From assembly GCA_000004985.1 (NCBI GenBank), contig GG738874.1: DNA of 64,000 bases; one strand, given 5' to 3'. The notes under the pieces were generated by a model that saw only the letters and a program-made list of their open reading frames with translations, did not search any database and was not told the origin of the DNA. Position numbers and translations under genes: made by a program. The DNA is from Naegleria gruberi. Lineage: Eukaryota. Of the stretch, positions 1-26,619 are shown piece by piece; position 1 is the stretch's first letter, and every line of letters begins with the position of its first letter.

Positions 1-812
1 AGAAATGGCTCCACTCTGTTGTCATTGACATTAATGGAAATTTTGATCGTTTCATTACTGATATTCATCACCCGAATCATTCCTTGTTGTGTTTTAGTCC
101 AAGAGCTCTCAAATTTCACACTGAAAACAATGAAGCTGTTATCAAAAGATATCATCACAAGACAGGAGATCAATGGATTCATCCACAGCATGGTGTTTTA
201 TTCGAAGGAGGGTATTTAAGTAATTCTTCAGTTCTGTATCCTCCAGTTGAGTTATTTAATCCAACTGGATTTACTGTATTATTGAGGGCATTTGCTGAGT
301 CAACTGATAGAGGAGTAATAATCATGTTTGGACGAGGATACAGATGGTTTGGTATTGATCCATTTGGAATTAGTTTGAGCAATGGTGAAAAACATTTCGA
401 GTTTGCAAATCAATTGAAATTAAGACAGTGGAATGATGTGTGGGTTTCGTATAATAATGTACAATCTCCTGGCACATTTAATGAATCATGTCGTGTCTTT
501 ACTCACAAGAATTCGAATACAAAGAAGGAAATATTTTGCATTGTGAATGGAAATGAATACCAATTTGAAGTTCCAATCGATAATAGGGTTCTTTCTCTAA
601 CAGATAATTATTATATAGAAGATGAAATGGGAATGGAATTTATTGATTATTCATGTGCTAATTGCTTTACAGGGTTTTTCTCCAGTTTAGTTTTATTCAA
701 TCAAAGTTGTAATAGTTTTGATGACTTGAAATTGGTTGCCTCAAACTTTTTGGAAAATCATTCCAAACCAACTGAAACCTATCAAGAAGTATTAAAAGAT
801 AAATCCAACTAA
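1..812 (+). CDS. 5'-partial CDS with a ConA-like/LamG-like or pentraxin-like beta-sandwich domain; the reading frame stays open to the window edge (the ORF track starts at a TTG at 84 only because no ATG exists)
   Basis: Frame 3 has no stop from nt 3 to the TAA at 810-812. The translation (...VLFEGGYLSNSSVLYPPVELFNPTGFTVLLRAFAESTDRGVIIMFGRGYRWFGIDPFGISLSNGEKHFEFANQLKLRQWNDVWVSYNN...) has the alternating hydrophobic pattern of LamG/pentraxin sandwiches. The N-terminus lies upstream of the window. Confidence 0.45.
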   Translation, partial: KWLHSVVIDINGNFDRFITDIHHPNHSLLCFSPRALKFHTENNEAVIKRYHHKTGDQWIHPQHGVLFEGGYLSNSSVLYPPVELFNPTGFTVLLRAFAESTDRGVIIMFGRGYRWFGIDPFGISLSNGEKHFEFANQLKLRQWNDVWVSYNNVQSPGTFNESCRVFTHKNSNTKKEIFCIVNGNEYQFEVPIDNRVLSLTDNYYIEDEMGMEFIDYSCANCFTGFFSSLVLFNQSCNSFDDLKLVASNFLENHSKPTETYQEVLKDKSN

Positions 813-863
813 TCTTCCATTTTTATTTTAATAAAGACATTGAATTCATTGAAAGTAGATGAT

Positions 864-1352
864 TTACCAAAGTCCTTCCGAGTGGAATACCAGTAAAAAC
901 ACTCCACCAATTCCGTATGCATTAATTTCATATTCAGAACCTCCAATATGACATTCGTAATATCTATGATATCTGAAAGCTTGTAATCTTCCAACCTTTT
1001 CACATAATTTCTCTAATTTCTTCATCATTGGCTTATGTTCTTCCGGATAATTAAGTGCTTGACGGTCACTCATTGGTTTATCTTTTTTCATTCCTTCCAT
1101 CCGTGCAATTGTTTCAGTATTCAAAAGTTGTGGAACTTGATGCTGGGGATGACAATAAAGTCGAGTCTCAAGTTTTGACATGTAATCAACTGTTCGATAG
1201 CATGGATTCATCTGTTGAATACTCCACAAATAATTCATTAATTCATTGATTCGTATTGTGTGTAGTTGATGGGCTTGTTGTTGTCGGAATTTTCTAATCA
1301 AAAGTGGAGAAGATTGTAAATCATTGAAAATCAGAACAACACATGATGACAT
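864..1352 (-). CDS. hypothetical protein (162 aa), function not recognised
   Basis: ATG-initiated ORF on the minus strand with host-like codon usage, convergent with the upstream gene. No recognisable motif. Confidence 0.4.
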   Translation of the reverse strand: MSSCVVLIFNDLQSSPLLIRKFRQQQAHQLHTIRINELMNYLWSIQQMNPCYRTVDYMSKLETRLYCHPQHQVPQLLNTETIARMEGMKKDKPMSDRQALNYPEEHKPMMKKLEKLCEKVGRLQAFRYHRYYECHIGGSEYEINAYGIGGVFLLVFHSEGLW

Positions 1353-1442
1353 TTTTATGATCTTGTTTTAACTCTTTCGAAAACACAAAACGTTCAATTT
1401 TGACGCTTAAGAAAACAATTTCTTGAGAATCTTTATTTTTTA

Positions 1443-4400
1443 TTAAAGAATGAAAGAAATAAACAATAAGGCAATAGCCAAGATTAAATTGAAAAGAGGA
1501 GTAGTTAAAGGAGAGTTGTTAATTCTTGCTGATTGTTGGGGAATGGTGATTGAACTGGATACTGAAATCAGTTTTTCACAATTGGTTCCAATGAAACCAA
1601 TTGAACATTTGCATGTATCTGTTGAAATGCATTGACCATTTCCTGAACAAACATTTGAAGTATCATTTGACAATTTTCCATAACATTGAATGAGTTTACA
1701 TTCAGGCCCATACCAATCCTTATCACATTTGCACAAGTTAAAATCCATACATTGCCCATGTCCAGAACAAACATTTGGCGTGTCATTTGACAATTTTCCA
1801 AAACATTGAATGAGTTCACAATCAGGGCCATACCAATCCTTATTGCATTGACATGTATCTGTTGAAATACATTGACCATGTCCAGAACAAACATTTGAGG
1901 TATCTGACAATTTTCCAAAACATTGAATAAGTTTACAATCAGGGCCATACCAATCCTTATTGCATTGACATGTATCTGTTGAAATACATTGCCCATTTCC
2001 TGAACAAACATTTGACGTATCATTTGACAATTTTCCAAAACATTGAAATAGCTTACAATCAGGCCCATACCAATCCTTATCACATTTACACAAGTTAAAA
2101 TCCATACATTGCCCATGTCCAGAACAACCCGATGAATTAGAGATACCAAAGCAGATAGGAGTATTGCATGAAGAACCAACCCAAGTCGAATTACATTCAC
2201 ACAAATCTTTTCCGATACATTGACCATGAGAATTGCAAGTGAGTGGATCATTACTTTGAATTCCAAAACAAGAGAAGTATTCACAATTGGCTCCACTAAA
2301 ACCATTATCACAAGTACACTTTTCATAATCTAAACATTTACCCCTCGATTGACAAACAGCAGAATCATTACTTAACAAACCATTACATGTGGTAATGTTG
2401 CAAGTTTCTCCAATCCAACCAATTTCACATTCACACAAATTGACATCAACACAAGCACCTTGGGATGGTCCACCACAAGAATTATTACCAAACTTTCCAT
2501 AACAGATTGGTGTGCATATTAAGGAATTTTCACTCAGACGAAAACCATCTTCTTCACAGTATGGAACTGCCACCCTAACCAAGCCATTACGAAAGATACC
2601 AGTATCTGAATATATTAAATTTCCTTGTTCATCAATGAAGATAGAGTCTGGGCATGAAACAATAGTTTCATTTCCTTTCACATTGTCTCTCATCTCAAAA
2701 CCTGTCTGTCCATTACCAATAATTGTTGAGATATTTCCATCCAATGCTGAAATCTTTCTTATAGCATGGGCATCACAATCAGGAAAAATTACATCACCAA
2801 CTTTGGTTGTAATAACAGATGCAGGATTAATAATAGATGCCAAAAGAGCAGAACCACCATCTCCAGTTGATAGCACAATTCCATTTCCTGTAACAGCATG
2901 AATGATACCGTCTTTGCTTATTCTTCTAATTCTGTTATTTCCTATATCAGTGAAATAAATATCTCCATCCACACTCACTGTAATACCATATGGATTATTG
3001 AGTTTTGCCTTAATTGCCTCAATTTCATCATTGTTATAACCAGCATATATACCACCAGCAATAGTAGAAATAATTCCTGTATCATAAGAAATCTTTCTAA
3101 TATTATTAGCATAACAAGAATCTGTAAAATAAATGTCACCTCTCCATGATACTACCAATCTGTTTGGACATAAATAGGCTTCAGATGCCAATCCACCATC
3201 GCCCAAACCACCAGCTAGAGTACTAATAATTCCATTGGTAGATACTGTTCTGATATAAGCTCTGTCAATTATATATAAATCTCCATTTGGTCCAACCTTT
3301 GAGAATGATGGAACTACACTAGTCATGTTGGCAAGAACATCATTTTCGATATCAGTAGTATTTCCGTTTCCAGCAATAGTTGAAATAACACCATTAGAAA
3401 TCTTTCTTAATCTAGAATTATCTGAAATGTAAATGTCACCATTTTGATCTACTGAAACACTTGTTGGCTTATTGAGTTGTGCATCAGTTGCAAGAATATC
3501 ATCTCCATTGTAACCTTCAACTCCAGTACCACAAATAATTGAATTTTGTAAAGTGGAAAGTGTAATATTGTTCAAAGTGGAATCTGATAGTAATACTAAA
3601 AGATACAATCCATCATTTGTAAGTGCAACATCTAAAGGAGATGCTACATTTTGTACAATGTCAATTATGCCACTTGTCAAATTAACAACTCTAATTGCAT
3701 TATTACCATTACAAGCAACATATAACAATTCTTCATCAGAAGAGAAAGCCATACCATTAGGATTTGAAATTGCTGCCTCGATAGCATTACCTCCATCTCC
3801 ACTATAATCATCAACCCCAGTTCCACAAATTGTTGTGATATTTCCATTGAGTGATATCTTTTGAACTCGATGAGTATTTGTGGAAAAGTAAATTTCACCC
3901 ATCTTGCTAACAAGAACTCTAACTGGATTACCTATCATTGAATCAATAGCTCTTACGTTTTCTCCACTGTATCCTGCAACACCAGGTTTACCAGCAATGG
4001 TTGTTATAATTCCCAAAGTTGAAATCTTTCTAATACATGAGTTTAAACTGTCAGCAATAATCATTTCACTAGTGCTTGGTAAAAAGTCAATTCCAGTTGC
4101 TCTACTGATAACTGAATATTTGGCATTGTATCCATCACCTCCAAATTGACCATTGGTTCCAGCAACTCTTATCAATGTGCCATTCCAAAATAGTTTGTAA
4201 ATTGAATTACTGAATGAAACAAATAACTCTTTTGTAATTGGTGAAACGGAAAGTCCAATAATGCTCTGGATTGATTCGAGCGGATTAATAACGTTAGGGA
4301 CAATAGTAGAGTCATCTAGACGGTTACCGTTACCTGCAATAGTTGAAACAATTTGATTCTTGTCAACCTTTCTAATTCTGCAATCATGTGAAATATATGT

Positions 4401-5618
4401 AATGCCATCAATTGAAACAACTTGACTAATATAGCCCAAAGCTGCTTTTGATGCTGGCAACCCATCTCCTCCATATACATTTGTATTACCAATTACTGTT
4501 TCAATAATTCCAGTTTGTTTTGAAATTTTACGTATCTTCAAATTTCCAGTGTCAGTAACATAAACATCTCCATTTTTAGAAACTGAGATTCCTGTTGGAT
4601 AAGCAAATTTGGCATTGATTGCGGGACCACCATCACCATAATTACCACTATCCATACTTCCACCAATTGTAGAAATGTAACCGCTGCTATTGACCATTCT
4701 AATAACGTTATTATTATCAATAATGTATAATGTACCATCAGGAGTGGAAACGACACCAGTTGGAAAATTCAATGCTGCATTGGTTGCCAAGCCTCCATCA
4801 CCAGAGTATCCTACATCTCCATTACCTGCGATTGTTGAAATAATTGCAGTGCTGCCATCAATCTTTCTAATTCTATGATTAAGTGAATCACAAAAGTAAA
4901 TGTCACCATTAGTGGAATTGACAAATAATCCTGTTGGTGTGTTTATCCTGGCAGTGAGTGCTGGTCTATTATCACCTCCAAAATTATTGATACCATTACC
5001 ACAGATTGTTACAACTGCACCATTTGAGATCTTTCTAATTCTGTGATTATTCCTATCAGCAAAGATTACATCAGAATTTATCAAACCAATACCAAAAGGA
5101 CGTGAAACTTTTGATAACTTAGCTTGTCCATCATTAAATCCTGAAGAACCAGGAATGCCAGCAATTACACTTATCTTTCCACTCTTCATGTCAATTTTTC
5201 TCACCAAATCATTGTAATAATCTGAAAAGTAAATATCACCAGTTTCTTTTGATACTACAATGCCTCTAGGTTCATTAATTTGAGCAAGCAGAGCCAATTG
5301 ATTTGCGCCACCATCACTATAACTACCTGGTAATTCACCTGTACCAGCAATCGCTTTTATCACATTACCAGATGTTGCTTTAATGGTATTAGCATCTGTG
5401 AAAACTAGTTCATCTTGTTCATTGAAGAATAATGCCAAGGGACTGTCGAGGGAAAGAGATGTCAAGTTATAACCATCACCCAGTAAGTTTCCACCTGCAA
5501 ATGTACTGGTTGTGTATTTCACAGGTTTCAAGTTGACCGTTGTCTTGCACAACACCATGTTGTTGGTTAACAACAACAATATTAAACAAACAAAGACATT
5601 GAACCAGAGTGCTGTCAT
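1443..5618 (-). CDS. secreted, probably GPI-anchored surface protein with about 16-18 NHL-type beta-propeller repeats followed by about 9 tenascin-type EGF repeats (1391 aa, intronless)
   Basis: ATG at 5618. N-terminal signal peptide MTALWFNVFVCLILLLLTNNMVLC. Repeated ...GNG..GYSGDGG.A..A.LN.P.G...d..G.lYiaD..N..IRki blades (NHL/YD-like). C-terminal Cys-rich units C.G....d...C.G.G.C.....C.C...W.G..C...C (EGF). Ser-rich stalk plus terminal hydrophobic tail LFNLILAIALLFISFIL immediately before the stop, typical of a GPI signal. Confidence 0.8.
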   Translation of the reverse strand: MTALWFNVFVCLILLLLTNNMVLCKTTVNLKPVKYTTSTFAGGNLLGDGYNLTSLSLDSPLALFFNEQDELVFTDANTIKATSGNVIKAIAGTGELPGSYSDGGANQLALLAQINEPRGIVVSKETGDIYFSDYYNDLVRKIDMKSGKISVIAGIPGSSGFNDGQAKLSKVSRPFGIGLINSDVIFADRNNHRIRKISNGAVVTICGNGINNFGGDNRPALTARINTPTGLFVNSTNGDIYFCDSLNHRIRKIDGSTAIISTIAGNGDVGYSGDGGLATNAALNFPTGVVSTPDGTLYIIDNNNVIRMVNSSGYISTIGGSMDSGNYGDGGPAINAKFAYPTGISVSKNGDVYVTDTGNLKIRKISKQTGIIETVIGNTNVYGGDGLPASKAALGYISQVVSIDGITYISHDCRIRKVDKNQIVSTIAGNGNRLDDSTIVPNVINPLESIQSIIGLSVSPITKELFVSFSNSIYKLFWNGTLIRVAGTNGQFGGDGYNAKYSVISRATGIDFLPSTSEMIIADSLNSCIRKISTLGIITTIAGKPGVAGYSGENVRAIDSMIGNPVRVLVSKMGEIYFSTNTHRVQKISLNGNITTICGTGVDDYSGDGGNAIEAAISNPNGMAFSSDEELLYVACNGNNAIRVVNLTSGIIDIVQNVASPLDVALTNDGLYLLVLLSDSTLNNITLSTLQNSIICGTGVEGYNGDDILATDAQLNKPTSVSVDQNGDIYISDNSRLRKISNGVISTIAGNGNTTDIENDVLANMTSVVPSFSKVGPNGDLYIIDRAYIRTVSTNGIISTLAGGLGDGGLASEAYLCPNRLVVSWRGDIYFTDSCYANNIRKISYDTGIISTIAGGIYAGYNNDEIEAIKAKLNNPYGITVSVDGDIYFTDIGNNRIRRISKDGIIHAVTGNGIVLSTGDGGSALLASIINPASVITTKVGDVIFPDCDAHAIRKISALDGNISTIIGNGQTGFEMRDNVKGNETIVSCPDSIFIDEQGNLIYSDTGIFRNGLVRVAVPYCEEDGFRLSENSLICTPICYGKFGNNSCGGPSQGACVDVNLCECEIGWIGETCNITTCNGLLSNDSAVCQSRGKCLDYEKCTCDNGFSGANCEYFSCFGIQSNDPLTCNSHGQCIGKDLCECNSTWVGSSCNTPICFGISNSSGCSGHGQCMDFNLCKCDKDWYGPDCKLFQCFGKLSNDTSNVCSGNGQCISTDTCQCNKDWYGPDCKLIQCFGKLSDTSNVCSGHGQCISTDTCQCNKDWYGPDCELIQCFGKLSNDTPNVCSGHGQCMDFNLCKCDKDWYGPECKLIQCYGKLSNDTSNVCSGNGQCISTDTCKCSIGFIGTNCEKLISVSSSITIPQQSARINNSPLTTPLFNLILAIALLFISFIL
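1650..2160 (-). repeat. coding tandem repeat: 5-6 near-identical 123-bp (41-aa) EGF units inside the NHL/EGF gene
   Basis: The DNA unit ...ccaatccttatcacatttgcacaagttaaaatccatacattgcccatgtccagaacaaacatttg...caattttccaaaacattgaa... recurs head-to-tail with roughly 90% or higher nucleotide identity. It encodes CFGKLSNDTSNVCSG(N/H)GQCISTDTCQCNKDWYGPDCKLIQ. One copy lacks one codon (KLSDTSNV). Confidence 0.85.
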
Positions 5619-8440: not shown

Positions 8441-8830
8441 ACAATAAACCTTATTTAAATTCTCAAATAACAGTTACTTCTCCCAACAGCAAGTGAACTG
8501 ATCATGCGACGAGGAATTAATATTTTCCAATTTATTCAAGTCACCAACCTTCAACTGTATGTCAACATTGTTAATTCATTCCCTATCGCATTTCCATCAT
8601 CCAAAAAACCGTAATTCCTTTCCATACTGATATGGTTATGAGGGAAATTTATCATCCCAAAAAAAAGCGCCTCTGTTCACCCTTGATGGCTACGTAGCTC
8701 TTTTGTTTTCGGAAGGTGAACGAGACATCATACCACCATACCATGTATTCAACAGCCATAATTGTATGCACTTTCAACAATGGTGGTGGTCTTGTGGCGT
8801 TCACAGTTGCAATCTTCATTCAAAAGAAAA

Positions 8831-10632
8831 ATGTTTAGAAATCTAGATAGATTCTCTGTTAAATTAATTGCTTCGATATTATTCTTGTTGACTATCACTT
8901 CATTGGTTGTGAATGTTTCAGCTGATACTACCATCACAGAATTAGCTTCGGATGTAGATGCTGGTTGGACTTTGATAAATGGTGCTCTCGTAATGTGTAA
9001 GTATATATTTCAATTGACCCAAAGTCTAACCTTCCATTAAATTGAATTAATAGTTATGCAGGCTGGGTATGTTAAATATTGGAAATGTAATTTCTGAAAT
9101 AATCTAGTTTCGCATTCCTGGAAGCTGGTGGTGTTCGTTCTAAAAACGTTGCCAATATCTTATTGAAAATTGTCATGTCTGTTGCCATTTCAACAATGGC
9201 TTGGTTCTGTATTGGTTATGGAATTGCTTTTGGTGACCAACTTACAGAAACCAGAAATGGGTTCTTTGGAAATTCTGGATTTTTCATGCTTGGAGGAGGA
9301 GAGTCAAACTCACAATTCTTTTTCCAATGGAGTTTTGCTGCCGTTGCCAGTTCGAGTAAGTGTTTCTTGTGAATTTTGATCTGACATGTGCTGTTCCAAT
9401 TAACATCTGTAGTTGTAAGTGGTGCCGTGGCTGAAAGAATGAATTTATCTGCATTCTTCATGTGTTCATTCTTAATGACTGCCTTCATTTATGCACCTGT
9501 TGTCCATTGGATTTGGTCCTCGACAGGTTGGTTGTCAGGATTCAATAAGGTATTTTTCAGAGTGGGAAATGTTGGTGTGGCTGACTTTGCTGGTGGTGTC
9601 GTTGTTCACGTAAGTATTTAGAATTTTGCTGCTTTCTTAATTGTTATAGTTGACTGGAGGAATTTGTGGCCTCGTTGGAGCTGTAATGGTTGGTCCAAGA
9701 ATTGGAAGATTCGTCAATGGAAAAGCTGTCAAGATCGAAGGACACAACAAGACATTAGTTTTGTTGGGTGGCTTGATTTTGTGGTTTGGTTGGGTAAGTA
9801 TTCTCTTCAGTATTTTGATGGCTTACTCTTTAAGTATGGATTTAACGCTGGATCATCCACTCTTAGTGGTGGTTTATCTAAAATTGCTGGTTTTGCCAGT
9901 ACCAACACAACTATTGCTGGTGCTGCTGGAGCCATGATGTGCATGTTGTGGTCTTGTCTCCAAAGTGGACAATATGACCTTACTGAAAGTTTGAACGGTT
10001 GCTTGGCAGGTTGTGTCGCAATCACACCAATATGTGCCTTTGTTGAGCCATGGGCTGCTGTTTTGATTGGTGCCACAGGTGCTATGGTTTATATTGGTGG
10101 AGCCTGGTTATTAGAGGTTTTGCATGTTGATGATCCAGTGAGCGCCGTTCCTGTTCATGCATTCTGTGGTGCTTGGGGATTGTTCTTGGGTGGATTATTC
10201 TCCACAAAATCAAGGTAAGTAAGCTAGTTCATTAATTCCTTAATATCTTCTAGTATTGCTCTCTATTTTGGTCTTGATTCCTCTTCGACATACTATGGTT
10301 TGTTCTACAGTATGAATTGGGAATTGTTGGGTGTGAATCTTTTTGCTATTGCTGTTGTAACTGTTTGGGTAACCTTCGCTTCAGTAATCATGTTCTTCTT
10401 CATTGATATCACCATTGGTTTGAGAGTTCCTCCACAAGATGAATTAGTTGGTTTGGATCACAAGTATGGTGGTGTTGCCTACACCAATGAAGATATTCAT
10501 CATAGTTATGGTTTTGGAGGTGAGTCTGGAACTGAACATTCCTTAACACGTTCAGCCTACAAGACTGCCCGATCCGTCAAGACTAGCAATACTACCTCTC
10601 AACGTTCAAATGGTTCTTCCTCTCGCAAATAG
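8831..10632 (+). CDS. amt: ammonium transporter (Amt/MEP family), tandem copy 1; 7 exons including a 13-nt micro-exon (9054-9066); N-terminal signal-peptide-like leader
   Basis: Spliced translation gives ...DAGWTLINGALVM|FMQAG|FAFLEAGGVRSKNVANILLKIVMSVAISTMAWFCIGYGIAFGD...SSSGAVAERMNLSAFFMCS...VPVHAFCGAWGLFLGGLFSTKSR...NWELLGVNLF...GLRVPPQDELVGLDHKYGGVAY, the canonical Amt signatures. Introns start GTAAGT/GTATGT, are 39-90 nt and end ...AG. Exon 1 is 8831..8996 and exon 3 is 9108..9356. Confidence 0.8.
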
Positions 10633-11066
10633 AGTAGCAATATTATATCCTCTCTAATATTCGTCATCAATTTCCTTCTCCCTTACTACCTATCCTTTTA
10701 CTTCCCAAGTTTTTGTATTTTTAATAGTAAGTTACAAAGCCTCTCATATTTCATCATGTACAAATACTTTGCAACTTTGTAGAATTGCCTTACATCATTT
10801 CTAACATTTCTTTTATCAGCCTTGATATTAGCCTTTCAGTGATTCGCTGTGTTTGCGTACTTTGTCATTTACCGCTTTTTTCTTTAAGAAAGACTTCCAA
10901 TCTTATTATGGCTGTGCGCGCAAATTAATCCAAAAGAAAAAATGTCTCACGTAACTTGGTGTCTCTACGTGGGAGAAGCAACATTACAACATTCTTTCAG
11001 TCTTCATCAAAACAATAATGCTAATGGATTGTCATTTCCGAGTATAAAATTTAGAAAGGACACTAT

Positions 11067-13022
11067 ATGGTTTTGTATGATAATAATGATGATGATTTTG
11101 GAATGAAAATTGTGGAATGTTCGGGACAGACTGAAGGATCATCGACAACTATAACAACAACAGAATTGGCTAGTAGTGTGGATGCTGGTTGGACTTTGAT
11201 GAATGGCGCATTAGTGATGTGTAAGTATGGGTGGTTATTGATTTTAGTTGATGGTTTTGATAGTTATGCAGGCTGGGTAAGTTTAGGAAATTATATCGGA
11301 TTCGAATAATGTCATGATGATAGTTTTGCATTTCTTGAAGCTGGTGGTGTTAGGTCGAAAAATGTGGCCAATATTTTGCTGAAAATTGTAATGTCAGTTT
11401 CCATCTCGACAATGGCTTGGTTCTGTATTGGTTATGGAATTGCTTTTGGTGACCAAAAGACTGAGACGAGAAATGGCTTCTTTGGAAATGCATCCTTCTT
11501 CTTATTGGGTGGAAATGAAGATAATAATTATTTTTTCTTTCATTGGAGTTTTGCTGCAGTGACCAGTTCAAGTAAGTATGAGAGTTCAATAGCAAGTTAA
11601 TGACCTATTTGAAAAGTTGTGAGTGGTGCTGTTGCTGAAAGAATGAATTTGTCTGCATTCTTCATGTGTTCATTCTTAATGACAGGATTCATTTATGCAC
11701 CAGTTGCTCACTGGATTTGGTCTACAACTGGTTGGTTGTCAGGATTCAATGAAACCATGTTCAGACTCGGCTATGTTGGAGTTTCAGATTATGCTGGTGG
11801 TGTTGTTGTCCATGTAAGTATCTGTTATAGCTCAATAACAATTCACAATTCAAGTTGACTGGTGGTATTTGTGGCCTCGTTGGAGCCATTATGGTTGGTC
11901 CAAGAATTGGAAGGTTTGTTAATGGTAAAACTATGAAAATTGAAGGTCACAACAAGACTCTTGTCTTGTTGGGCGGTTTGATTTTGTGGTTTGGTTGGGT
12001 AAGTATTATTTCACTAATTATCATTACAATAATCAATAACAAGTATGGATTCAATTCGGGCTCAGTATTAAAATTGAGTGGTGGAATGTCAAAGATTGCC
12101 AGCTTTGCAAGTACCAATACAACACTTGCAGGTGCAGCAGGTGCCCTTATGTGTATGTTGTGGTCTTGTTTCCAAAATGGGCAGTAAGTAGTTCAATAAG
12201 GTTTACCCTCTCTAATATATCACAAAACTCTACTAAGGTATGACCTTACTGAGAGCTTGAATGGTTGCTTGGCTGGCTGCGTTTCAATCACGCCTATTTG
12301 TGCCCTCATTGAACCATGGGCCTCTGTGATTGTAGGATCAAGTGGAGCAATTGTTTACATTATAGGAACATGGTTGCTTGAATTCTTTCATGTTGATGAC
12401 CCAGTGAATGCAGTACCAGTGCACGCATTTTGTGGAGCTTGGGGATTATTGATGGGAGGATTATTTGCCACTAAGCAACAGTAAGTGTTTCAATTTATCC
12501 AAATCTCCTAACAATGTCCGAACAAATAATTTCCAATTAATTGTTTTCAATAATTAATGTGATTATGAAAGAATGATTCTCCTATATTCTCTTCCAGCCG
12601 ATAACCCATACTATGGAGTATTTTATAGTTATAATTGGGAATTGTTAGGAATTAATTTGTTTGCCATAATTATTGTAACCATTTGGGTTACTTTCTCATC
12701 CGTAATCATGTTCTTTTTAATTGATATCACAATTGGTTTGAGAGTTCTTCCACAAGATGAACTAGTTGGTTTGGATCACAAGTATGGTGGAATGGCCTAT
12801 AACAATGAAGACAATGTCCACATTTTCAGTGCTTCCTCATCAGAAAATACTCTAGCCAAACAAGCTTACAAAACAGTTCAATTCGTCCAACAACAAAAGA
12901 AATACTCAAACACGACTACAGAACTATCAGAACAATTAGATTCCCAACACTCTGTCGGATCATTTAATAGCAAACCTCATCGTCCTTACCAACATCAACA
13001 ACAACAACAACAGTGGAGGTAA
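11067..13022 (+). CDS. amt: ammonium transporter (Amt/MEP family), tandem copy 2; same exon plan plus one extra intron (after ...FQNGQ, about 12187-12237); poly-Q C-terminal tail
   Basis: Same micro-exon ttatgcaggctgg (FMQAG) flanked by GTAAGT introns. Exon 3 encodes GFAFLEAGGVRSKNVANILLKIVMSVSISTMAWFCIGYGIAFGDQKTETRNGFFG... The C-terminal exon encodes ...YNWELLGINLFAIIIVTIWVTF...GLRVLPQDELVGLDHKYGGMAY and ends ...QQQQQQWR* at 13022. No obvious signal peptide (MVLYDNNDDDFGMKIVECSG...). Confidence 0.75.
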
Positions 13023-13344
13023 ATTTTTGTCGTTGGTTCTTTCGTGCTGATTGAAGTTTAGATTGTTCAGTTTAGCAAAGTTTCTACACAAAGAAGGCCA
13101 CAAAAGAACTTGTTTATGTTGAAAATTGAAAGATAGCACCAATCGGTCAAGAAGAATTCGTTCCCGCACATTTTTGCAAAGTGTGAACTGAACATTGGAA
13201 ACCAAAAACAAACAACTTGCCAACAATCGATTGGTTCACCCTTGCCCACCACCACCAACAACAATAATGGATGATGTTGAGTGCCACAATCTTCATTATT
13301 TCGCTTTTTATCATACAACAACAAAAAGAAATAATTAACAACAA

Positions 13345-15232
13345 ATGATAGAGAGAACGAGAAGAAATAATTATTTGGCTGTTGGACTTACTGTGGTAGT
13401 ACTGTTGCTGACGTGCTTTGAGCAGCAAGTAAAAGCACAAACATTATCGGCAGCAGATGTAGATATTGGTTGGACATTGTTGAACGGAGCCTTGGTTATG
13501 TGTAAGTTTTGCTCATCCACACATTGATTGTTGACACATTTATTGTGGCCATTATTGAATTCTCGGTGATTGTTCTTGTAACATTTTAAATCATTTGATG
13601 AAATCAAATCCTAAATAATTAATTAATTTGGACTTGAATAGTTATGCAAGCAGGGTGAGTGATATAATTTAATCCATTATTTCTAATTTGAGCTGTTATA
13701 AAGATTTGCATTTCTTGAAGCTGGTGGTGTTCGTTCTAAAAACGTTGCCAACATCTTATTGAAGATTGTCATGTCTGTTGCCATTTCAACAATGGCTTGG
13801 TTCTGTATTGGTTATGGAATTGCTTTTGGAGATAATGCAATGAGTGAAACTAGAAATGGATTCTTTGGCGTTTCGTCCTTCTTTTTATTGGGAGCTAATG
13901 AATCTCATCATATTTTCTTCTTTCAATGGAGTTTTGCTGCTGTTGCCAGTTCAAGTAAGTTTAGGCTTTTTGAATAATTTTTGACCTATTCGAATAGTTG
14001 TGAGTGGTGCCGTCGCTGAAAGAATGAATTTATCTGCATTCTTCATGTGTTCATTCTTAATGACTGCCTTTATCTATTCTCCAGTTGCTCACTGGATTTG
14101 GTCTACAACTGGTTGGTTATCAGGATTCAATAAGACTTTATTCAGAATTGGTACTGTCGGTGTCACTGATTATGCTGGTGGTGTAGTTGTTCACGTAAGT
14201 ATTTCGATATTCCATGAACATTCCAACATAATTGTGTAAATAGTTGACTGGCGGAATTTGTGGCCTTGTTGGAGCCATTATGGTTGGTCCAAGAATTGGA
14301 AGATTCGTCAATGGAAAAGCTGTCAAGATTGAAGGACACAACAAGACTCTTGTCTTGCTAGGAAGTTTCATTTTGTGGTTTGGTTGGGTAAGTATTATTT
14401 CAATAACTTGTAAATTCTAATTATGGAATAGTATGGTTTCAATGGTGGTTCAACTACTGCATTGAGTGGTGGCTTGTCCAAGATTACAAGTTACGCCAAT
14501 ACTAACACAACCATTGCTGGTGCTGCAGGTGCTCTCATGTGTATGTTTTGGTCTTGTCTTCAAAGTGGACAATATGACCTTACTGAAAGTTTGAACGGTT
14601 GTTTGGCAGGTTGTGTCTCAATTACACCAATTTGTGCCTTTGTTGAGCCATGGGCTGCTGTTCTGGTTGGTGCCACAGGTGCTATGGTTTATATTGGAGG
14701 TACTTTATTATTGGAATATTTACATATTGATGACCCTGTAAGTGCTGTTCCTGTTCATGCATTCTGTGGTGGATGGGGATTGTTCTTGGGAGGTTTCTTT
14801 GCCACAAAGGATTTGTAAGTACTTGTTCTCAAATATTAATACTGACCTAATGTTTCTCAAAATAGACTCATACTCTTCTATGGATTGGACAGTACCGATT
14901 TTGTGACCTATGGTGTCTTGTACAGTTTGAATTGGGAAATTTTGGGTGTTAACATGCTCGGTATTGCAGTTACCACCATTTGGGTTGCATTCTCTTCAGT
15001 AATCATGTTCTTCTTCATTGACATTACCATTGGTCTGAGAGTTCCTCCACAAGATGAATTAGTTGGCTTGGATCACAAGTATGGTGGTGTTGCCTACAAT
15101 AACGAAGATGTTCACCACTATGGTTTCTCAAACAGTGCCTCAGAGAGTACACTCGCTAACTCTGCCTATAAATCAGCCAGAAGTGCTGGTAGTAAAAGAT
15201 CTCACAGAAGAAAATCAGTTGCTAAACCATAA
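13345..15232 (+). CDS. amt: ammonium transporter (Amt/MEP family), tandem copy 3; micro-exon ttatgcaagcagg; N-terminal signal-peptide-like leader
   Basis: MIERTRRNNYLAVGLTVVVLLLTCFEQQVKAQTLSAADVDIGWTLLNGALVM|FMQAG|FAFLEAGGVRSKNVANILLKIVMSVAISTMAWFCIGYGIAFGDNAMSETRNGFFG...SGAVAERMNLSAFFMCSFLMTAFIYSPVAHWIWST...C-term ...LYSLNWEILGVNMLGIAVTTIWVAFSSVIMFFFIDITIGLRVPPQDELVGLDHKYGGVAY... Stop at 15232. Confidence 0.8.
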
Positions 15233-15901
15233 TTGTCATTGTGACAATACGAAACAATTCGATTTATCTGATTATGTATTATAAACTAATCATTCTTAAT
15301 ACTCAATATCGATTAATAGTCAATTACCATATGCAATTTTACAACAATACTTTACAATATCAATATGAAACTCTTTACTAGTAACTTAATCTTTTTGGAT
15401 TGACCTCATGGTCAGCACAAACTCCATAAACAATTTCAACAAATTATTGATCGCATAACATTGATTTCAACTCTTGATTATTTAAATTGTCAACTCTCCA
15501 TATTTTTTAGGAACTTTCTTAACCAATTGCTTTCAATAATCATCTTCCTCAATCGGACGAAAGTCAGAAAAAGAGTTTTACAAAAAATGAGCATTTTCAC
15601 CCAGAGCGAAGATGGCTATTATTATCAATCTCTTTATTTTGTATTGAGTTTCGAGTATTTAATCTGAAACAGTTTTTCAAAGTAAAGAAGAAAAAAAACG
15701 AAACTCTGGTGAAACTATTTTGTGGATTAGTGACCATCATTCTTTTGAGTACTATTAACGCAGTAATTGAACAATAACTTTCTAATACCTCTCCGAAACA
15801 CCGTTCATTTTAAAAGGAACATTGTTAACGAACTCATTTTTCAAACAATTAGAACATTAAGTTAAGAATCTAGACGAAACTATCAAAAAAAAGGAGAAAC
15901 A

Positions 15902-17199
15902 ATGCCCAATAATCAGCAGTTTAGAGCAATTCCTTCATCTTCATCACGAGCACTCGACATTTCTTCATCTACAGATCAAATACTTAACGGAGATTCGAAT
16001 AACAAGTTTCCAACAAGAGATTGTACCTCCTCAAACAGTACATCCACAACAACTGAAGATTATTCAGGGGAAGATGGTGCTGACTATCAATATGAAGATG
16101 GAGCTCTTCAAGAAGAAACAGAAGAAACTAATGGAGACGAAACTTATTCTAATCTTGATTTGAATACTGTCAAGTTATTTGTTGGACAAATTCCATACTC
16201 TTATGGTGAAGATAATTTATATCCATTATTTTCACAATTTGGTCCAGTTGCTGAAATTGTTGTGATTAGAGACAGATTTACATTCAAGTCAAGAGGATGT
16301 GCTTTCGTCTCATTTCGTAGTAAGCAAGATGCGGACACATGCATTAGAGAACTCAATCAAAGATTGAAACTGCCACCTGTAAGTATATTTGATATGTGAT
16401 AATTTTAACTTATTCGAATGGTTTCAATTGAACACCTTTTTTATTCGAAACTTAGTTAAATACCCCTCTCAGAGTTAAATATGCCTACACTGAGCAACAA
16501 TTAGATATTGTTAATGATAATTTTGTAAATAATGCTCCAAATCTAACTACTTCATCCTCGCCTAATGATTCCAATAGTGAAAAATCTCAAGATTTGACAA
16601 TTGCCTCAAATTTCCTCTCCTGTCTCAATATAGATAAGTATGAAATTGGCGTGCCTCATCCAGAAAACAAGCTCTTTATCAGAAATATTCCAAAGAATGT
16701 TACTGAAGATGAGCTCTCAACTCTATTCGAAAGTTTTGGCGAAATTCTTGACGTTGTCGTATTGAGAACGACCATTCATACTTCAAAGGGATGTGGTTTT
16801 ATCAAATTTACCAATTCAGAATCAGCTGATATGGTCATTAACACCTTCAAGAGAGAAATCATTTCACCAATTCAAGAATATCAACAAGGAGCTCAACAAG
16901 AAGGAACAACTATTGGTGGACCTTCTAATCAAAGATTGGTCGAGTTGACTAACAAGCTCCTAGAGAGTAGTTTCCTTATGAAGGGAGCTATCACTCCTCT
17001 ATTGGTTAGATATGCTGATAAGGATTATGTACCAAGTCAATCAACACAAGATGAACATGTCTATAATTCAACAACTACTGGTGGTCATGATTATCACTCT
17101 ACAAATGGAAATCATGGAGGTCATTACAATCCAAGAAGAAGGAAATCTTATCCATTGTCTTATCATAATAATAATAATAATAGAAGAGGATCCTATCAT
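15902..17199 (+). CDS. RNA-binding protein with at least 2 RRM domains (CELF/Bruno-like), 3'-truncated by the assembly gap; exon 1 15902..16378, intron 16379..16455, exon 2 16456 to the gap
   Basis: RRM1 is LFVGQIPYSYGEDNLYPLFSQFGPVAEIVVIRDRFTFKSRGCAFVSF (RNP2/RNP1). RRM2 is KLFIRNIPKNVTEDELSTLFESFGEILDVVVLRTTIHTSKGCGFIKF. PLRVKYAYTEQQ and PLLVRYADKD linkers resemble the ELAV/CELF 'VKFAD' motifs. The reading frame runs into the N run at 17200. Confidence 0.7.
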
Positions 17200-17991
17200 N
17201 NNNNNNNNNNNNNNNNNNNNNNNNNNNNNNNNNNNNNNNNNNNNNNNNNNNNNNNNNNNNNNNNNNNNNNNNNNNNNNNNNNNNNNNNNNNNNNNNNNNN
17301 NNNNNNNNNNNNNNNNNNNNNNNNNNNNNNNNNNNNNNNNNNNNNNNNNNNNNNNNNNNNNNNNNNNNNNNNNNNNNNNNNNNNNNNNNNNNNNNNNNNN
17401 NNNNNNNNNNNNNNNNNNNNNNNNNNNNNNNNNNNNNNNNNNNNNNNNNNNNNNNNNNNNNNNNNNNNNNNNNNNNNNNNNNNNNNNNNNNNNNNNNNNN
17501 NNNNNNNNNNNNNNNNNNNNNNNNNNNNNNNNNNNNNNNNNNNNNNNNNNNNNNNNNNNNNNNNNNNNNNNNNNNNNNNNNNNNNNNNNNNNNNNNNNNN
17601 NNNNNNNNNNNNNNNNNNNNNNNNNNNNNNNNNNNNNNNNNNNNNNNNNNNNNNNNNNNNNNNNNNNNNNNNNNNNNNNNNNNNNNNNNNNNNNNNNNNN
17701 NNNNNNNNNNNNNNNNNNNNNNNNNNNNNNNNNNNNNNNNNNNNNNNNNNNNNNNNNNNNNNNNNNNNNNNNNNNNNNNNNNNNNNNNNNNNNNNNNNNN
17801 NNNNNNNNNNNNNNNNNNNNNNNNNNNNNNNNNNNNNNNNNNNNNNNNNNNNNNNNNNNNNNNNNNNNNNNNNNNNNNNNNNNNNNNNNNNNNNNNNNNN
17901 NNNNNNNNNNNNNNNNNNNNNNNNNNNNNNNNNNNNNNNNNNNNNNNNNNNNNNNNNNNNNNNNNNNNNNNNNNNNNNNNNNNNNNNNNNN
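17200..17991. other. assembly gap (792 N); it truncates the 3' ends of two convergent genes
   Basis: Uninterrupted run of n characters from 17200 to 17991. Confidence 1.
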
Positions 17992-19405: not shown

Positions 19406-21504
19406 GGGATATTATTGGCTCTCTAATGTCAGAAATGAACATATTTCGGGCTCGGGAGCATGAGTAATGCAAATGTCTGACTCAATAGCAAGTGCTGCAA
19501 TTGAGCTTGTAACACCACCTAAATTATAATTAATGTAAAAAAACAATTTCACACCATTAAAAACTTACATGCCCAAAAACATAGGAATCTCATCTTTATG
19601 TACTGTAGCTGAGTCTCCAAAGTCAACCTTACTCAAATCTCTTTAGGATCCGCAATGAATTGGTCCTCAGTGAGTTGTTGTGAATTGATCATTTGTCTGG
19701 AATTGATTGATTCAAATATTTCAAGTTTGGTTGTATCTTTCCAAGTTGTCGGCTGTTCCTGAAATTACTAATTTCTGTAGTTTGAAACGTCCTTGTTTGA
19801 GAGGACTCCAATACTGGACATGGCTAATGATTTAGCTTACAAAATTCTTCAAATTCTGTTACATACTGCAGGCAGAATGACTAAATCTTTACAAAATTAA
19901 AACTGCCCACAGCTCGGTTTTTACGCTGGTGTTTTTTCAATGTTGTTGGTGCATGAGAATCTGTGTGAAGAAGATTCAAGAATCCGTCAACCAGTGCGAT
20001 GACAGGTGCGAATGAAATTTGGCCTTTGAAACTTGGGGAAATAACTCGAAAATTAGTCCACAACATCAAAATCCAAAACATAGTAGTACTAACATACAAA
20101 AACCACCTCTTTAGGATGGTTTCATGTAGGTTTTGGAGAATATGAATTGGTGTTAGAATTACAGTACTTTAACCTATGGGTTAGAGTTGGCTTTCAACCA
20201 ACACTAATGTATGACAAATAAAAATTTAGCTTGTTGTTTGTAAAAATTCTTGTTTTATTTTTGTGGGTTGGAAGCAAGCTGGAAAGTGGGAAATAAATTT
20301 TTTCCTCAACTGATGGGTAAATGTTGAATCTAGTGAACGTAAACCACACAAGCAAACAAACCAGCTAGAAATTGCTAGCTGTGGGTTACCTTTAATTTTG
20401 TAAAGAAATTGGCCTGAATAAAGCCTTTAATCATTACAAAATAAATAATAAAATTCTCAATAAAATTCATATCCTGATGATACAATGCTCAAACTGTCCA
20501 TTCCGAATCAATCGACGAAATTGATAATAGGAGAATATCTTTTGCATTTTTTTTGTAAATTAAAATTGATTCGGCCAATCAAATTGAATTCACATCTACA
20601 GTAACAAGTTCATCAAAATGTTTGCAATTTTCCTTAATATGCCAAATTTCTGAAAAATAAAACTGTAATTGATAAATGTTACAAGTAACTTGAGAAACTC
20701 AAAGACTGTTCTTTCACTACCATTTTCGAATACAAGACAAGCATTTCTGGAAACCGTCTTACTGCTCATTACTGCCAATAATTCCTTCGTTCACAAATTT
20801 TCTAAAGTATCAACTTGCATTTCTTGTCGCATTCACAACTTACCTAAATAATTTATAATTACACGCCATCTTCAATAACTTTCGAATATTGTCATTAGCA
20901 ACACCCTATTTAGCAAGAAAGTTTTTATACAACCAGATATTCATGTTGGTACCCACTACCTCTAAATATTCATTTGTTGATGATAATTTGAGCATACCCG
21001 GGTACAAAGCAAAATCCCTTAAACCTCATCTTCACACAAACAATGAAGAGTATTGAGCACTTGCCTGATGAATCATTTCTCTAACAAAGCATTCCCGCTA
21101 TCAATTCTGACAATTGGTTAATAAAATTGTGCATCAGTCCAAAAAGAATTTCACGCCGGTATCTAATTTGAAACCGCTTACCATTTCCATGTTCATGCTT
21201 TCCTTTTCCATGTCGCAACATTTCTTCAATTTTCCCAAATCAACTTTTCCCTCCAAAACTGAATGGAAAAGAAAAAGTAAATTCATGTCGTGAAATTTAT
21301 TGTTTGAGGTACGTGAAGAAGAATCTTAAGCTTCTGTCTGTATTTGACTTTTATAATTGTTTTTGTTGAGGTGCATGAAGCAACTGTTTCATCATCTGCA
21401 ACGAAATCTTATTGTGAAAAAAACAACTCAAAATCCCCCTCTATTTCAAACACTACTCATTGCGAGTTTTGAAATTCAAATTTACCTCAACATACAACTA
21501 CAGA

Positions 21505-22503
21505 ATGACCCTATTAGATTCCGCCAATTTATTCTCCTCCTTTTCCATTCATACATTCAATACCACTGCCGCCAATGATTCCTCATCTGCTGCCTACTCA
21601 CCAACTCCCGCCAATTCTCGTGCTTGTTTAGCTTGTCGAATGGCCCATAAATCATGTGATAGAGCCAAACCTGCATGTTCGAGATGTATTTCGAGAGGCA
21701 TTGCTCATCTGTGCTGTGAACCATCGACTAAGAAGAGAGGACGACCAAGAAAATGGAAAGATTCTGAAAAACAAGACTCACCTCAAGAACAATATGAAGA
21801 AGAAATTAATTTCAATGCTAATAGTTCACCTCAACCTTCAAATAATGAATCATCATTGAGTCATAGTGAATCTGGAGTTTCGTCTCCAAGTGAGTTGAGT
21901 GCTCAATTGGGAGGTAATTCATCTCCACTCGTTTATAATGTTATTCCATCAAGTACATGCAAGTCACCTGTCGAAGAAGCCTTACTGACAGAAACTTTGA
22001 AAAAGACACAATCTAAAAAACTCAAGTTTATCAAGATTATGAACTATAACCCAAATCATAGAGAAACTTTCTCACCAAGATTTACAATTACTTCCTCAGA
22101 AAAGAAACATACTCTTTCCACACCTCAAGATAATCAACCTTCTCAAAAGAAGAGAAAGACCAAGTCAACTAATCCAATTCTTTCCTCTACTAACTACCAA
22201 ACCTCAACTGTCAGCCAACCAAGTCAACCACTTGTTGAAATTAATGTGAAATCTGTTCAATCCTCTCCTGTAACATCACCAAGTTCAGTTCCTACCCAAT
22301 TTTCTCCAATTCCTTCACCAACAGTTATATATTCGCAAACACCTTTCACTCAACCAACATTTATCCCAAACAATTCTCAATTTTACTATCCTACTGCCAT
22401 TTCTACTAACCAACCTCGTCATTGTGATGAGGGGCGAATTGTCAACAACAATCAAGTGAAATTACCTTCAATTTATAGCTTGCTTTCATCGCTCCAAGAA
22501 TAA
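21505..22503 (+). CDS. Zn(II)2Cys6 binuclear-cluster (fungal-type) transcription factor, Ser/Thr/Pro/Gln-rich C-terminus, 332 aa
   Basis: ATG at 21505. CLACRMAHKSCDRAKPACSRCISRGIAHLCC fits C-x2-C-x6-C-x6-C-x2-C-x8-C, followed by the basic linker KKRGRPRKWK. Low-complexity S/T/P/Q-rich remainder. Confidence 0.8.
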   Translation: MTLLDSANLFSSFSIHTFNTTAANDSSSAAYSPTPANSRACLACRMAHKSCDRAKPACSRCISRGIAHLCCEPSTKKRGRPRKWKDSEKQDSPQEQYEEEINFNANSSPQPSNNESSLSHSESGVSSPSELSAQLGGNSSPLVYNVIPSSTCKSPVEEALLTETLKKTQSKKLKFIKIMNYNPNHRETFSPRFTITSSEKKHTLSTPQDNQPSQKKRKTKSTNPILSSTNYQTSTVSQPSQPLVEINVKSVQSSPVTSPSSVPTQFSPIPSPTVIYSQTPFTQPTFIPNNSQFYYPTAISTNQPRHCDEGRIVNNNQVKLPSIYSLLSSLQE

Positions 22504-24674: not shown

Positions 24675-25236
24675 CTTTTTTTAAAATGTTTGAGAATAAC
24701 CTGAATGTCATGATGGAAAACCGATGACATTTCTGATGCAGTATCAATTCATAGATGATATTAATTAGATATTATTTCCTTTTCAAAGCAACAACACTTC
24801 GATTGTAATCACTCGTTTAGACAAGGTGAATCTGGACCATTCGGGTTCGAATACAATTTGTGTAAACGTTACTCGATGAGTGTGTATTCAATTAAACACA
24901 AATCATCTTTCGATAATTGATTTGCTTAGTGTCGTTGAATTTTTCAAAAGAAAGGCTGTAGATAACGTTTGTTGTTTTTTTAGTAAATTTTGGCGCCAAC
25001 TTTTTGGCTAAAGCTATCTCAGTCAATGAACAAGGAACTTGATGGTCAAAATTATTGGTCAAATGAAAGACCAATCTTTCAACATTCAAATTTCAATACT
25101 AAACTGTAAATGGTTCCAATTTCATTGAAGCAGTTTGTGAGGTAACTTGAAGATTCTTTACAAAGTATTGATTTTCAATTGAAAAACACTTTAAAAAAAA
25201 TACCTCAACTGCGACAAGCCAAATTCTATCACCAAC

Positions 25237-26619
25237 ATGCTGAGTCAGAGTAATACAGTTGATCATCACGAGGATCGATCGGAACATGATCATCATTCTA
25301 ATAATAATAATGGCACCAGTTTATCCATTGATTGCATTGAACACATCTTGTCATGCATGAGATTGAAGGACAGAATATCAATTTCGTTAATTAATCACGA
25401 TTGGAATAGAGGTTTTGAAAAGAGCGTCAAGACACTCATGATTACAAAAACCAAAAGTAAGGCTTGGTTACAAGATTTTAAAAAGTTTAGAGGTTTTATT
25501 AAGAGATTCCCAGAAATTCAAAACTTTACTTTAGAATCACCTATTGAAGTTTCGAGGGCTAAGGATGAGACGACTATGTGGTTCTCGATGAATGTTGTTC
25601 AAACATTATTGGATGAGTTGCCTTCATCACTGAAGAGTTTTACATTGTCACATTTTGCTTTGGGATTGTCATCGAAAACATTCGAATTGGTAATTCCTGA
25701 ATCGAAACAATTGAGAGAGTTGACTTTTATTAATTGTAAACGAGCACACGGTTTGACTGTTTCAAATTGTGGAAATTTGAGAAGTTTGTCAGTTTCATGG
25801 GGAAGCTTCTTTATCAAGAACTCTGGGTTTGAAGAATTGAAGAATTTGAGATATTTGAACTTGTCTAATAATAAGGTGGTCACTGATGAATTGTTGGATA
25901 ATATTGTAAAGAACTGTCCTTCTTTGGAAAAACTAGTGTTGGTTGGCTGTCTTAACATTCAGTCTCCGTTCAAAGATGTCAATTTGAATTGTTTGAAATA
26001 TTTAGATCTCTCAGCTACCAATATTAGAGATTCATGTATTGAGAATATTTGTTCTGGAACAGCACTCAATTTGGAAGAGTTGAGATTGAGAACTTGTATG
26101 GGCTTGGTCTCTCCATCATTTAAAGACATCCCTTCCATTAAAATTATTGGCTCACAATTCAATGCAGGAATTCAAACAGCAAGTTTCCACAAATTAAGAA
26201 GATTGGAAAAGATTGATTTGGACGGAAATATTTGCCTTAAAAAGATTTATATTTCTCAATGTAAAAGTATCATATATTTGGATGTGAGTAAGACTTTGAT
26301 TAATGATGAGGCGCTCGAAGAAATATTTTCAGAATGTCCAGAATTGAAACAATTCTTTGCTATCAAATGCTACAAATTGAAGAGTCCTAAACTTGTCCAC
26401 TCCAAATTGGAGGAAATTAGATGTACAAACTCGTGTTATCTCACTAAGAATACTGTCTTTGATTGTCCAAACATTATTTCTCAACATTTCATTGGTACTA
26501 TTCTCGGTCCAGGAGAGTTTACAGTTCCTCTTGTGTTGAGAGAAGATGTGGCAGAGGCCGCAGAACTTGCAAAAGCTGGCATGGTAAAGAATCATGTTAA
26601 TCGGTTAAATAAGTTCTAG
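25237..26619 (+). CDS. F-box / leucine-rich-repeat protein (460 aa)
   Basis: N-terminal F-box IDCIEHILSCMRLKDRISISLINHDWN, followed by about 12 LRR-like units (L..L.L..C..I.D..L..L...C..L..L.L). Confidence 0.7.
   Translation: MLSQSNTVDHHEDRSEHDHHSNNNNGTSLSIDCIEHILSCMRLKDRISISLINHDWNRGFEKSVKTLMITKTKSKAWLQDFKKFRGFIKRFPEIQNFTLESPIEVSRAKDETTMWFSMNVVQTLLDELPSSLKSFTLSHFALGLSSKTFELVIPESKQLRELTFINCKRAHGLTVSNCGNLRSLSVSWGSFFIKNSGFEELKNLRYLNLSNNKVVTDELLDNIVKNCPSLEKLVLVGCLNIQSPFKDVNLNCLKYLDLSATNIRDSCIENICSGTALNLEELRLRTCMGLVSPSFKDIPSIKIIGSQFNAGIQTASFHKLRRLEKIDLDGNICLKKIYISQCKSIIYLDVSKTLINDEALEEIFSECPELKQFFAIKCYKLKSPKLVHSKLEEIRCTNSCYLTKNTVFDCPNIISQHFIGTILGPGEFTVPLVLREDVAEAAELAKAGMVKNHVNRLNKF

Follow-up and report, generated by a model that had tools for sequence, protein, structure and literature searches.

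A tandem ammonium transporter trio in Naegleria gruberi with a shared 13-nt micro-exon and a probable paralog-specific intron loss

Among described members of the ammonium transporter (Amt) family, A. fulgidus Amt-1 (PDB 2B2F) and E. coli AmtB (e.g., PDB 9CS5 and 1U7G) are products of prokaryotic, intron-less genes and have short tails; E. coli AmtB has a cleaved signal peptide. Much closer relatives are found in Naegleria fowleri, Naegleria lovaniensis and Willaertia magna, each of which shows one Amt gene within the 22-kb region retrieved for its locus. Micro-exons are familiar from other eukaryotes as very short coding exons that are frame-critical and conserved. Here we analyze a stretch of 64,000 nucleotides (nt) of Naegleria gruberi contig GG738874.1 (GCA_000004985.1), hereafter the window, in which positions 8831–15232 (+ strand) hold three intact Amt genes, head to tail. 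These genes, amt1, amt2 and amt3, share a 13-nt micro-exon, and one intron (I6 of the eight positions compared below) occurs in amt2 only. We consider it quite likely that the locus records an old local triplication of functional Amt channels with an ancestral, constitutive micro-exon, followed by loss of I6 with gene conversion and by loss of the amt2 leader. A literature search retrieved no paper describing the Naegleria Amt locus (micro-exon, ammonium transporter or intron loss).

Exon models were built by hand across positions 8500–15600, and each was checked by translation. On the + strand, amt1 (8831–10632) comprises seven exons (8831–8996, 9054–9066, 9108–9355, 9413–9609, 9650–9793, 9835–10214 and 10254–10632) and encodes 508 residues in a frame that is open from ATG to TAG. 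The eight exons of amt2 (11067–13022) lie at 11067–11220, 11264–11276, 11324–11571, 11617–11813, 11855–11998, 12044–12183, 12238–12480 and 12572–13022 and encode 529 residues, while the seven of amt3 (13345–15232) lie at 13345–13501, 13642–13654, 13704–13954, 13998–14194, 14244–14387, 14432–14814 and 14866–15232 and encode 503. All introns are of the GT..AG type, the majority starting with GTAAGT, and measure 39–140 nt (median ~45 nt). Each protein matches PF00909 (Ammonium_transp) in a single stretch spanning profile positions 2–399 of 399, with E values of 1e-111 to 1e-114 (1.5e-113 for amt1) and scores of 373–382 bits against a curated cut-off of 23.2. A preliminary description of this DNA had proposed three tandem, same-strand Amt paralogs; the full-length domain matches and intact spliced frames bear this out, and its outer boundaries, an ATG at 8831 and a stop ending at 15232, are exact. 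Exactly three copies were recovered by tblastn, with no fourth elsewhere in the window. The copies are 73.6–76.8% identical in nucleotides and 76–80% in protein, and the exact protein sequences are absent from a 15-billion-protein collection. Rfam, tRNA and tandem-repeat scans found nothing.

The whole membrane domain aligns with Amt-1 (E 2e-54) and AmtB (E 1e-49). In this alignment amt1 keeps FQWSF, HWIW, DFAGGVVVH, GFNAGS and PVHAFCG, and amt2 and amt3 have the pore motifs too, with variation at D[FY]AGG and GFN[ASG]GS. The twin histidines (DFAGG-VVH and VH-x-FCG), the DFAGG aspartate and the cytoplasmic RVPPQDELVGLD motif are retained; the C-terminal RVPxxxExxGLD motif is likewise common to these proteins and the two prokaryotic ones. 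In AmtB numbering, we take the pore and recruitment residues to be H168/H318 (twin histidines), F107/F215 (Phe gate), W148/S219 (Trp/Ser binding site) and D160 (the DFAGG aspartate). Unlike Amt-1 and AmtB, the Naegleria proteins carry C-terminal extensions of 47–76 residues that are copy-specific. The ratio of nonsynonymous to synonymous divergence (dN/dS) is 0.11–0.15 for all paralog pairs, and purifying selection acts on all three copies. The favored reading is that they are functional ammonium/ammonia channels whose leaders and cytoplasmic tails have diverged.

Exon 2 is exactly 13 nt long in each copy, with AG before it and GT after it. On the + strand it occupies 9054–9066 in amt1 (TTATGCAGGCTGG; flanking introns 8997–9053, 57 nt, phase 1, and 9067–9107, 41 nt, phase 2), 11264–11276 in amt2 (TTATGCAGGCTGG; introns 11221–11263, 43 nt, and 11277–11323, 47 nt) and 13642–13654 in amt3 (TTATGCAAGCAGG; introns 13502–13641, 140 nt, and 13655–13703, 49 nt). 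It supplies the last two bases of an F codon, the M, Q and A codons, and the first two bases of a G codon, within the protein context LVM-FMQAG-FAFLEAGGVRSKN (LVM-FMQAG-FAFLEAG), and alignment to the Amt-1 and AmtB structures places it in transmembrane helix 1. If the 13 nt are skipped, the frame shifts and a stop follows by residue 71–75, ~20 codons on; retaining either flanking intron brings one by residue 57–75. In amt1, all of these changes end the frame by residue 70–75. The micro-exon that had been proposed for the first Amt helix appears to be real and obligatory, although its earlier coordinates were exact for amt1 only: they lay 5 nt off in amt2 (11259–11271) and 1 nt off in amt3 (13641–13653). 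Likewise, the two flanking introns are tiny, as first described, in copies 1 and 2 (41–57 nt), but not upstream of the micro-exon in copy 3 (140 nt). The pattern of micro-exon, intron 2 and exon-3 start matches three times in the window, against none in 100 shuffles.

The orthologs place this exon in a wider frame. It recurs in N. fowleri (TTATGCAAGCAGG, positions 10252–10264 of the fetched locus L001) and in N. lovaniensis (TTATGCAAGCTGG, 10272–10284 of L003), in both cases between introns of phases 1 and 2. Across the five Naegleria genes of three species, 11 of the 13 bases are invariant and the two variable ones are synonymous third positions; the surrounding intron bodies are not alignable, and apart from the splice sites the five-gene alignment showed no conserved intronic element. 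Because the N. fowleri and N. lovaniensis orthologs have the same micro-exon with the same phases, it appears to be conserved throughout the genus and inherited from the Naegleria ancestor rather than new, and it is annotated already in the relatives. Public models KAF0980265.1 and CAG4717415.1 (N. fowleri) and KAG2391817.1 (N. lovaniensis) contain FMQAG. The earlier concern that gene callers would easily miss the exon is not borne out by these three annotations, but the risk itself is real, as an open frame can also be reached through an AG in exon 3. Metagenome contigs contributed little: an exact-pattern scan for the run of micro-exon, intron 2 and exon 3 found no match, and a protein-guided scan gave relatives at 34–41% identity only, none Naegleria-like.

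Like the micro-exons of other eukaryotes, the Naegleria Amt exon is tiny, frame-critical and conserved. It differs in appearing constitutive, between introns of 41–140 nt, and no sign of alternative use was found. We propose that the very short introns on both sides allow it to be tolerated; splice sites would then be paired across introns (intron definition), as general splicing knowledge suggests.

To compare intron positions, annotated ortholog proteins were mapped onto their own loci with an exact splice mapper; intron lengths in nt follow in the order amt1, amt2, amt3, N. fowleri, N. lovaniensis, W. magna. Two positions are occupied in all six genes: I1 (LVM|FMQ, phase 1; 57, 43, 140, 64, 102, 61) and I3 (ASS|IVSG, phase 1; 57, 45, 43, 125, 126, 51). 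Four more are occupied in all five Naegleria genes and absent from W. magna, namely I2 (MQA|G, phase 2; 41, 47, 49, 68, 56), I4 (VVH|L, phase 0; 40, 41, 49, 206, 148), I5 (FGW|YGFN, phase 0; 41, 45, 44, 129, 92) and I8 (after TK(S/Q), phase 2; 39, 91, 51, 118, 75). Thus six of the eight intron positions in N. fowleri and N. lovaniensis are common to all three copies, and a seventh, I6 (SGQ|YDL, phase 2), is shared with amt2 (54, 127 and 73 nt in amt2, N. fowleri and N. lovaniensis; absent from amt1, amt3 and W. magna). The remaining one, I7 (AVP|(I/V)HAF, phase 0; 86 nt in N. fowleri, 113 nt in N. lovaniensis), is found in none of the three copies and is absent from W. magna; it was either lost before the triplication or gained in the N. 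fowleri/N. lovaniensis lineage, and the outgroup cannot decide. W. magna reads through the Naegleria intron-2 site, so that its exon 2 is 29 nt and ends at a private intron 16 nt further, and of its eight introns two (I1 and I3) are shared and six private. At shared positions, introns here are typically 39–57 nt (39–140 nt overall), some 2–3x shorter than the 56–206 nt of N. fowleri and N. lovaniensis, and far below the reported N. gruberi genome-wide mean of 203 nt. With 7–8 exons each, against a reported 1.7 exons per gene, the Amt genes are also far richer in introns.

The I6 position distinguishes the copies. In amt2 the intron (12184–12237, + strand, 54 nt, phase 2) falls within the Q codon of NGQ|YDLTES, and amt1 and amt3 read straight through the site at 9970–9972 and 14570–14572, as the preliminary description had noted. 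It must be spliced out of amt2, because read-through gives CAG TAA, an immediate stop. Comparison with related species, which had been suggested as a check, showed that N. fowleri and N. lovaniensis have I6 too, with an identical codon and phase. Because those two species share its position and phase, I6 appears ancestral to the Naegleria gene, and copies 1 and 3 would have lost it precisely; the event would be a loss, not a gain. Its removal is exact, with GGA CAA TAT GAC in amt1 and amt3 against GGG CA|G TAT GAC in amt2. Such a clean loss without coding change would be the signature expected of recombination with a spliced cDNA or with an intron-less paralog.

The site of the loss coincides with a tract of unusual similarity between the two intron-less copies. 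Over 135 nt (9964–10098 in amt1 and 14564–14698 in amt3, both + strand), copies 1 and 3 alone are near-identical, beginning ~8 nt upstream of the lost-intron site, which falls between 9971 and 9972 in amt1 and between 14571 and 14572 in amt3. This tract corresponds to codon columns 324–368, where amt1 and amt3 agree at 32 of 38 polymorphic sites, a score reached in 0 of 3000 permutations. The test was a home-made, GENECONV-like search for maximal segments, as distinct from the published program, over the sites at which the three copies differ. Synonymous divergence (dS) inside the tract is 0.17 for amt1–amt3 versus 2.6–2.9 for the pairs with amt2, and third-position identity is locally 0.87–0.93 versus 0.37–0.6. 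A tree of the tract joins amt1 and amt3 in 98% of bootstraps. Perfect-run tests gave weaker signals for amt2–amt3 at columns 194–203 (P = 0.007) and for amt1–amt3 at columns 251–259 (P = 0.05). The tract points to gene conversion between the non-adjacent copies 1 and 3, and it is plausible that this conversion spread the intron-less state. The most economical history that we infer would be a single loss of I6, then gene conversion carrying the intron-less state to the other, non-adjacent copy.

Divergence among the copies bears on the age of these events. Over the conserved core, dS is 0.71 for amt1–amt3, 1.12 for amt1–amt2 and 1.10 for amt2–amt3, and it ranges from 0.96 to 1.35 between the copies and N. 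fowleri or N. lovaniensis. Since the paralog values resemble those against N. fowleri, the duplications appear to be old, dating from about the time of the split from the N. fowleri lineage. The intron difference had been ascribed to recent gain or loss, but "recent" is unsupported; with I6 shared by N. fowleri and N. lovaniensis and with dS between copies of 0.7–1.1, it looks instead like an old loss. Outside the coding core the copies show no similarity, be it in leaders, tails, untranslated regions or intergenic DNA, and the boundaries of the duplication unit are therefore not recoverable. Pairwise alignment, which had been put forward as a way to date the duplications, yields no clean date, as the copies are mosaics with conversion-like tracts.

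Other histories of I6 need to be weighed against loss followed by conversion. Had the amt2 intron been gained, amt2 would have to be the true ortholog of the N. fowleri and N. lovaniensis gene, or the same site would have to have received parallel insertions. The outgroup Willaertia has no I6, which makes the polarity depend on a poorly resolved ingroup tree. However, the clade of amt2, N. fowleri and N. lovaniensis that a gain needs appears in 0–0.5% of 1000 neighbor-joining (NJ) bootstraps under three distance measures, amt2 is the copy farthest from N. fowleri (dN 0.177 versus 0.142–0.146 for amt1 and amt3), and two independent insertions would be unlikely to coincide in nucleotide and phase, so we give a gain very little credence. 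A loss without conversion is a considerably stronger contender, one that we regard as possible though somewhat doubtful: I6 would have been lost twice independently, or once in an ancestor of copies 1 and 3, and the tract would reflect a later, unrelated exchange. Such an exchange would have been made easier by both copies already being intron-less, amt1–amt3 has the lowest dS overall (and 0.82 outside the tract), and the other short amt1–amt3 and amt2–amt3 tracts lie away from intron differences. Against this, amt1 and amt3 form a clade with only 23–34% support outside the tract, their non-adjacent positions are awkward for a simple most-recent tandem duplication, and the 5′ edge of the tract lies within three codons of the loss site. 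Several further points count against the history that we favor. The tract shows an exchange between amt1 and amt3 at the loss site without showing that this exchange removed I6, and two independent losses, or a single loss in the copy-1/3 ancestor, fit equally well; the tract may also have formed either before or after the loss. For the three copies as a monophyletic group, NJ support is 23–30% (amino acids) or ~71% (codon positions 1+2), and the duplications may therefore pre-date the species split, with the other lineage then losing copies. Moreover, the splice junctions were all deduced from the reading frame, the splice consensus and conservation, and the leaders were judged by hydropathy and the −3/−1 rule only.

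The exon models and the integrity of the genes admit alternatives of their own. The 13 nt might not be an exon at all if one longer intron ran from the exon-1 donor to an AG within exon 3 (acceptors ending at 9124, 11340 and 13720), and this model does keep the frame open in all three copies; a gene caller that overlooked the micro-exon would probably output it. It deletes 11 residues (FMQAGFAFLEA) from the most conserved part of helix 1, however, and these are present in every homolog inspected. The 13 nt also form an island of conservation with synonymous changes only, always bounded by AG and GT amid unalignable introns, and they are included in the public models of the orthologs, all of which makes the single-intron model the least credible possibility considered here. 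Scarcely more probable is the idea that the micro-exon has been kept genus-wide as a splicing switch, with regulated skipping turning each Amt paralog off post-transcriptionally; triggers could include nitrogen status or amoeba–flagellate–cyst transitions, and the copies could differ in their switching. Support for such a switch is limited to the frameshift that skipping causes. As for whether one or more copies are decaying pseudogenes or assembly duplicates, amt2 does have no leader and a longer low-complexity tail, and the draft assembly has an N gap nearby. Yet each copy has an intact frame and only canonical splice sites, and the low dN/dS holds for every pair, so decay is very unlikely. 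The preliminary description had put the copies at about 70–80% identity and thought an artifact unlikely, in agreement with the ~25% nucleotide difference and the absence of flanking similarity, which rule out an assembly duplicate.

The copies differ most at their ends, largely as first described. The leaders of amt1 and amt3 are hydrophobic and signal peptide-like, with maximum 12-residue Kyte–Doolittle scores of 2.8 and 3.0, while that of amt2 is acidic and non-hydrophobic (maximum 0.48, net charge −6). An h-region followed by small residues at −3/−1 is present in amt1 (VSA|D), amt3 (VKA|Q), N. fowleri, N. lovaniensis and W. magna, but not in amt2. No upstream signal-peptide exon for amt2 was found in any of the three frames of 10640–11066, and an in-frame TAG stands five codons upstream of its ATG. 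Given a leader in amt1, amt3 and all three orthologs and no such upstream exon, amt2 appears to have lost an ancestral leader of cleavable type, a derived state. The C-terminal tail is S/T-rich in amt1, basic in amt3 and Q-rich in amt2, where it ends in HQQQQQQWR, the poly-Q tail noted earlier. It is a reasonable inference that the copies have diverged in targeting or regulation. Separately, the 434-nt spacer between amt1 and amt2 contains a 54-codon upstream open reading frame (ORF; 10943–11107, MSHVTWCLYVGEATLQ...), which is read in another frame and extends across the start of amt2.

The best protein matches are N. fowleri FDP41_013479 (KAF0980265.1/XP_044564978.1; 79% identity to amt1) and W. 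magna ABK040_012834 (67%), with all others at 47% or below. The N. fowleri protein cluster also holds N. lovaniensis C9374_013302 (KAG2391817.1) and a second N. fowleri annotation. The N. fowleri and N. lovaniensis orthologs resemble the genes described here in protein identity (74–79%), in the micro-exon and in the signal peptide-like leader, and they share a gene neighborhood; they differ in forming one gene at the locus rather than three. W. magna, also single-copy, has the leader peptide in common with amt1 and amt3, together with the introns before FMQAG (phase 1) and at AS(S/T)|IVSG. The next closest eukaryote-like homolog, P0004 on a Logan contig, is intron-less and uninformative on intron age. 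Because flanking genes, an F-box/LRR gene and another ORF in N. fowleri and a PX/RGS gene in W. magna, match the window at 21.6–27.3 kb, the Amt locus appears orthologous, with some local rearrangement. Window positions 21619–22107 and 25234–26139 correspond to L001 positions 1–4157, where the N. fowleri genes lie upstream of Amt on the opposite strand; here they lie downstream on the + strand. The W. magna PX/RGS neighbor matches 26685–27317. The neighborhood is thus conserved, but locally inverted or rearranged.

Elsewhere, the window has a G+C fraction of ~0.34, and reported values are 33% for N. gruberi NEG-M and 35–36% for N. fowleri (PMC8296547). A bin of low G+C at 16–18 kb (0.21) was rejected as biology, since this dip and the pile of overlapping mechanical ORFs there are due to a run of ~790 N at 17201–17991. 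This assembly gap interrupts a gene encoding at least two RRM domains (PF00076, E 1e-18 and 4e-16; exons 15902–16378 and about 16594–17199). On the − strand, 1443–5618 encodes a 1391-residue ORF with teneurin-like NHL repeats and EGF domains (PF25021, E 3e-58; PF23106, E 1e-34), a metazoan-looking extracellular architecture in a heterolobosean. The ORF at 21460–22503 weakly matches PF00172 (E 5e-5, just above the cut-off), the Zn(2)-Cys(6) binuclear cluster domain of fungal type, which is unusual outside fungi, and a 1012-residue ORF at 28009–31047 joins an SNF2-family helicase (PF00176, E 6e-25) to N-terminal GRF zinc fingers (PF06839, E 1e-21). Finally, the 579-residue ORF at 55877–57616, with no Pfam domain on record, has a 69% relative on a Logan contig and is 100% identical to a protein on a 2-kb ENA metagenome contig (ERZ929261, PRJEB11402); the same or a near-identical Naegleria strain was therefore present in that environmental sample.

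Every element of the Amt locus is of a known kind, be it the Amt family itself, the micro-exon, tandem duplication, intron loss or gene conversion, and the whole is an ordinary gene-family expansion with tidy intron evolution that leaves current understanding unchallenged. Its main practical value is for annotation: gene models of amt1, amt2 and amt3 must include the 13-nt exon, as a model that misses it stays open and passes superficial checks. The locus would also provide a clean case of paralog-specific intron loss, its direction fixed by two outgroup species, and a conversion tract over the loss site that is relevant to the spread of intron-less states among the members of a gene family. 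In mouse-passaged N. fowleri, ammonia transporters are up-regulated, and the Naegleria urea cycle is incomplete, which makes ammonia handling of some interest (PMC8296547). In this context, a free-living relative with three diverged copies, against the single copy of the pathogen, may serve as a starting point for functional comparison.

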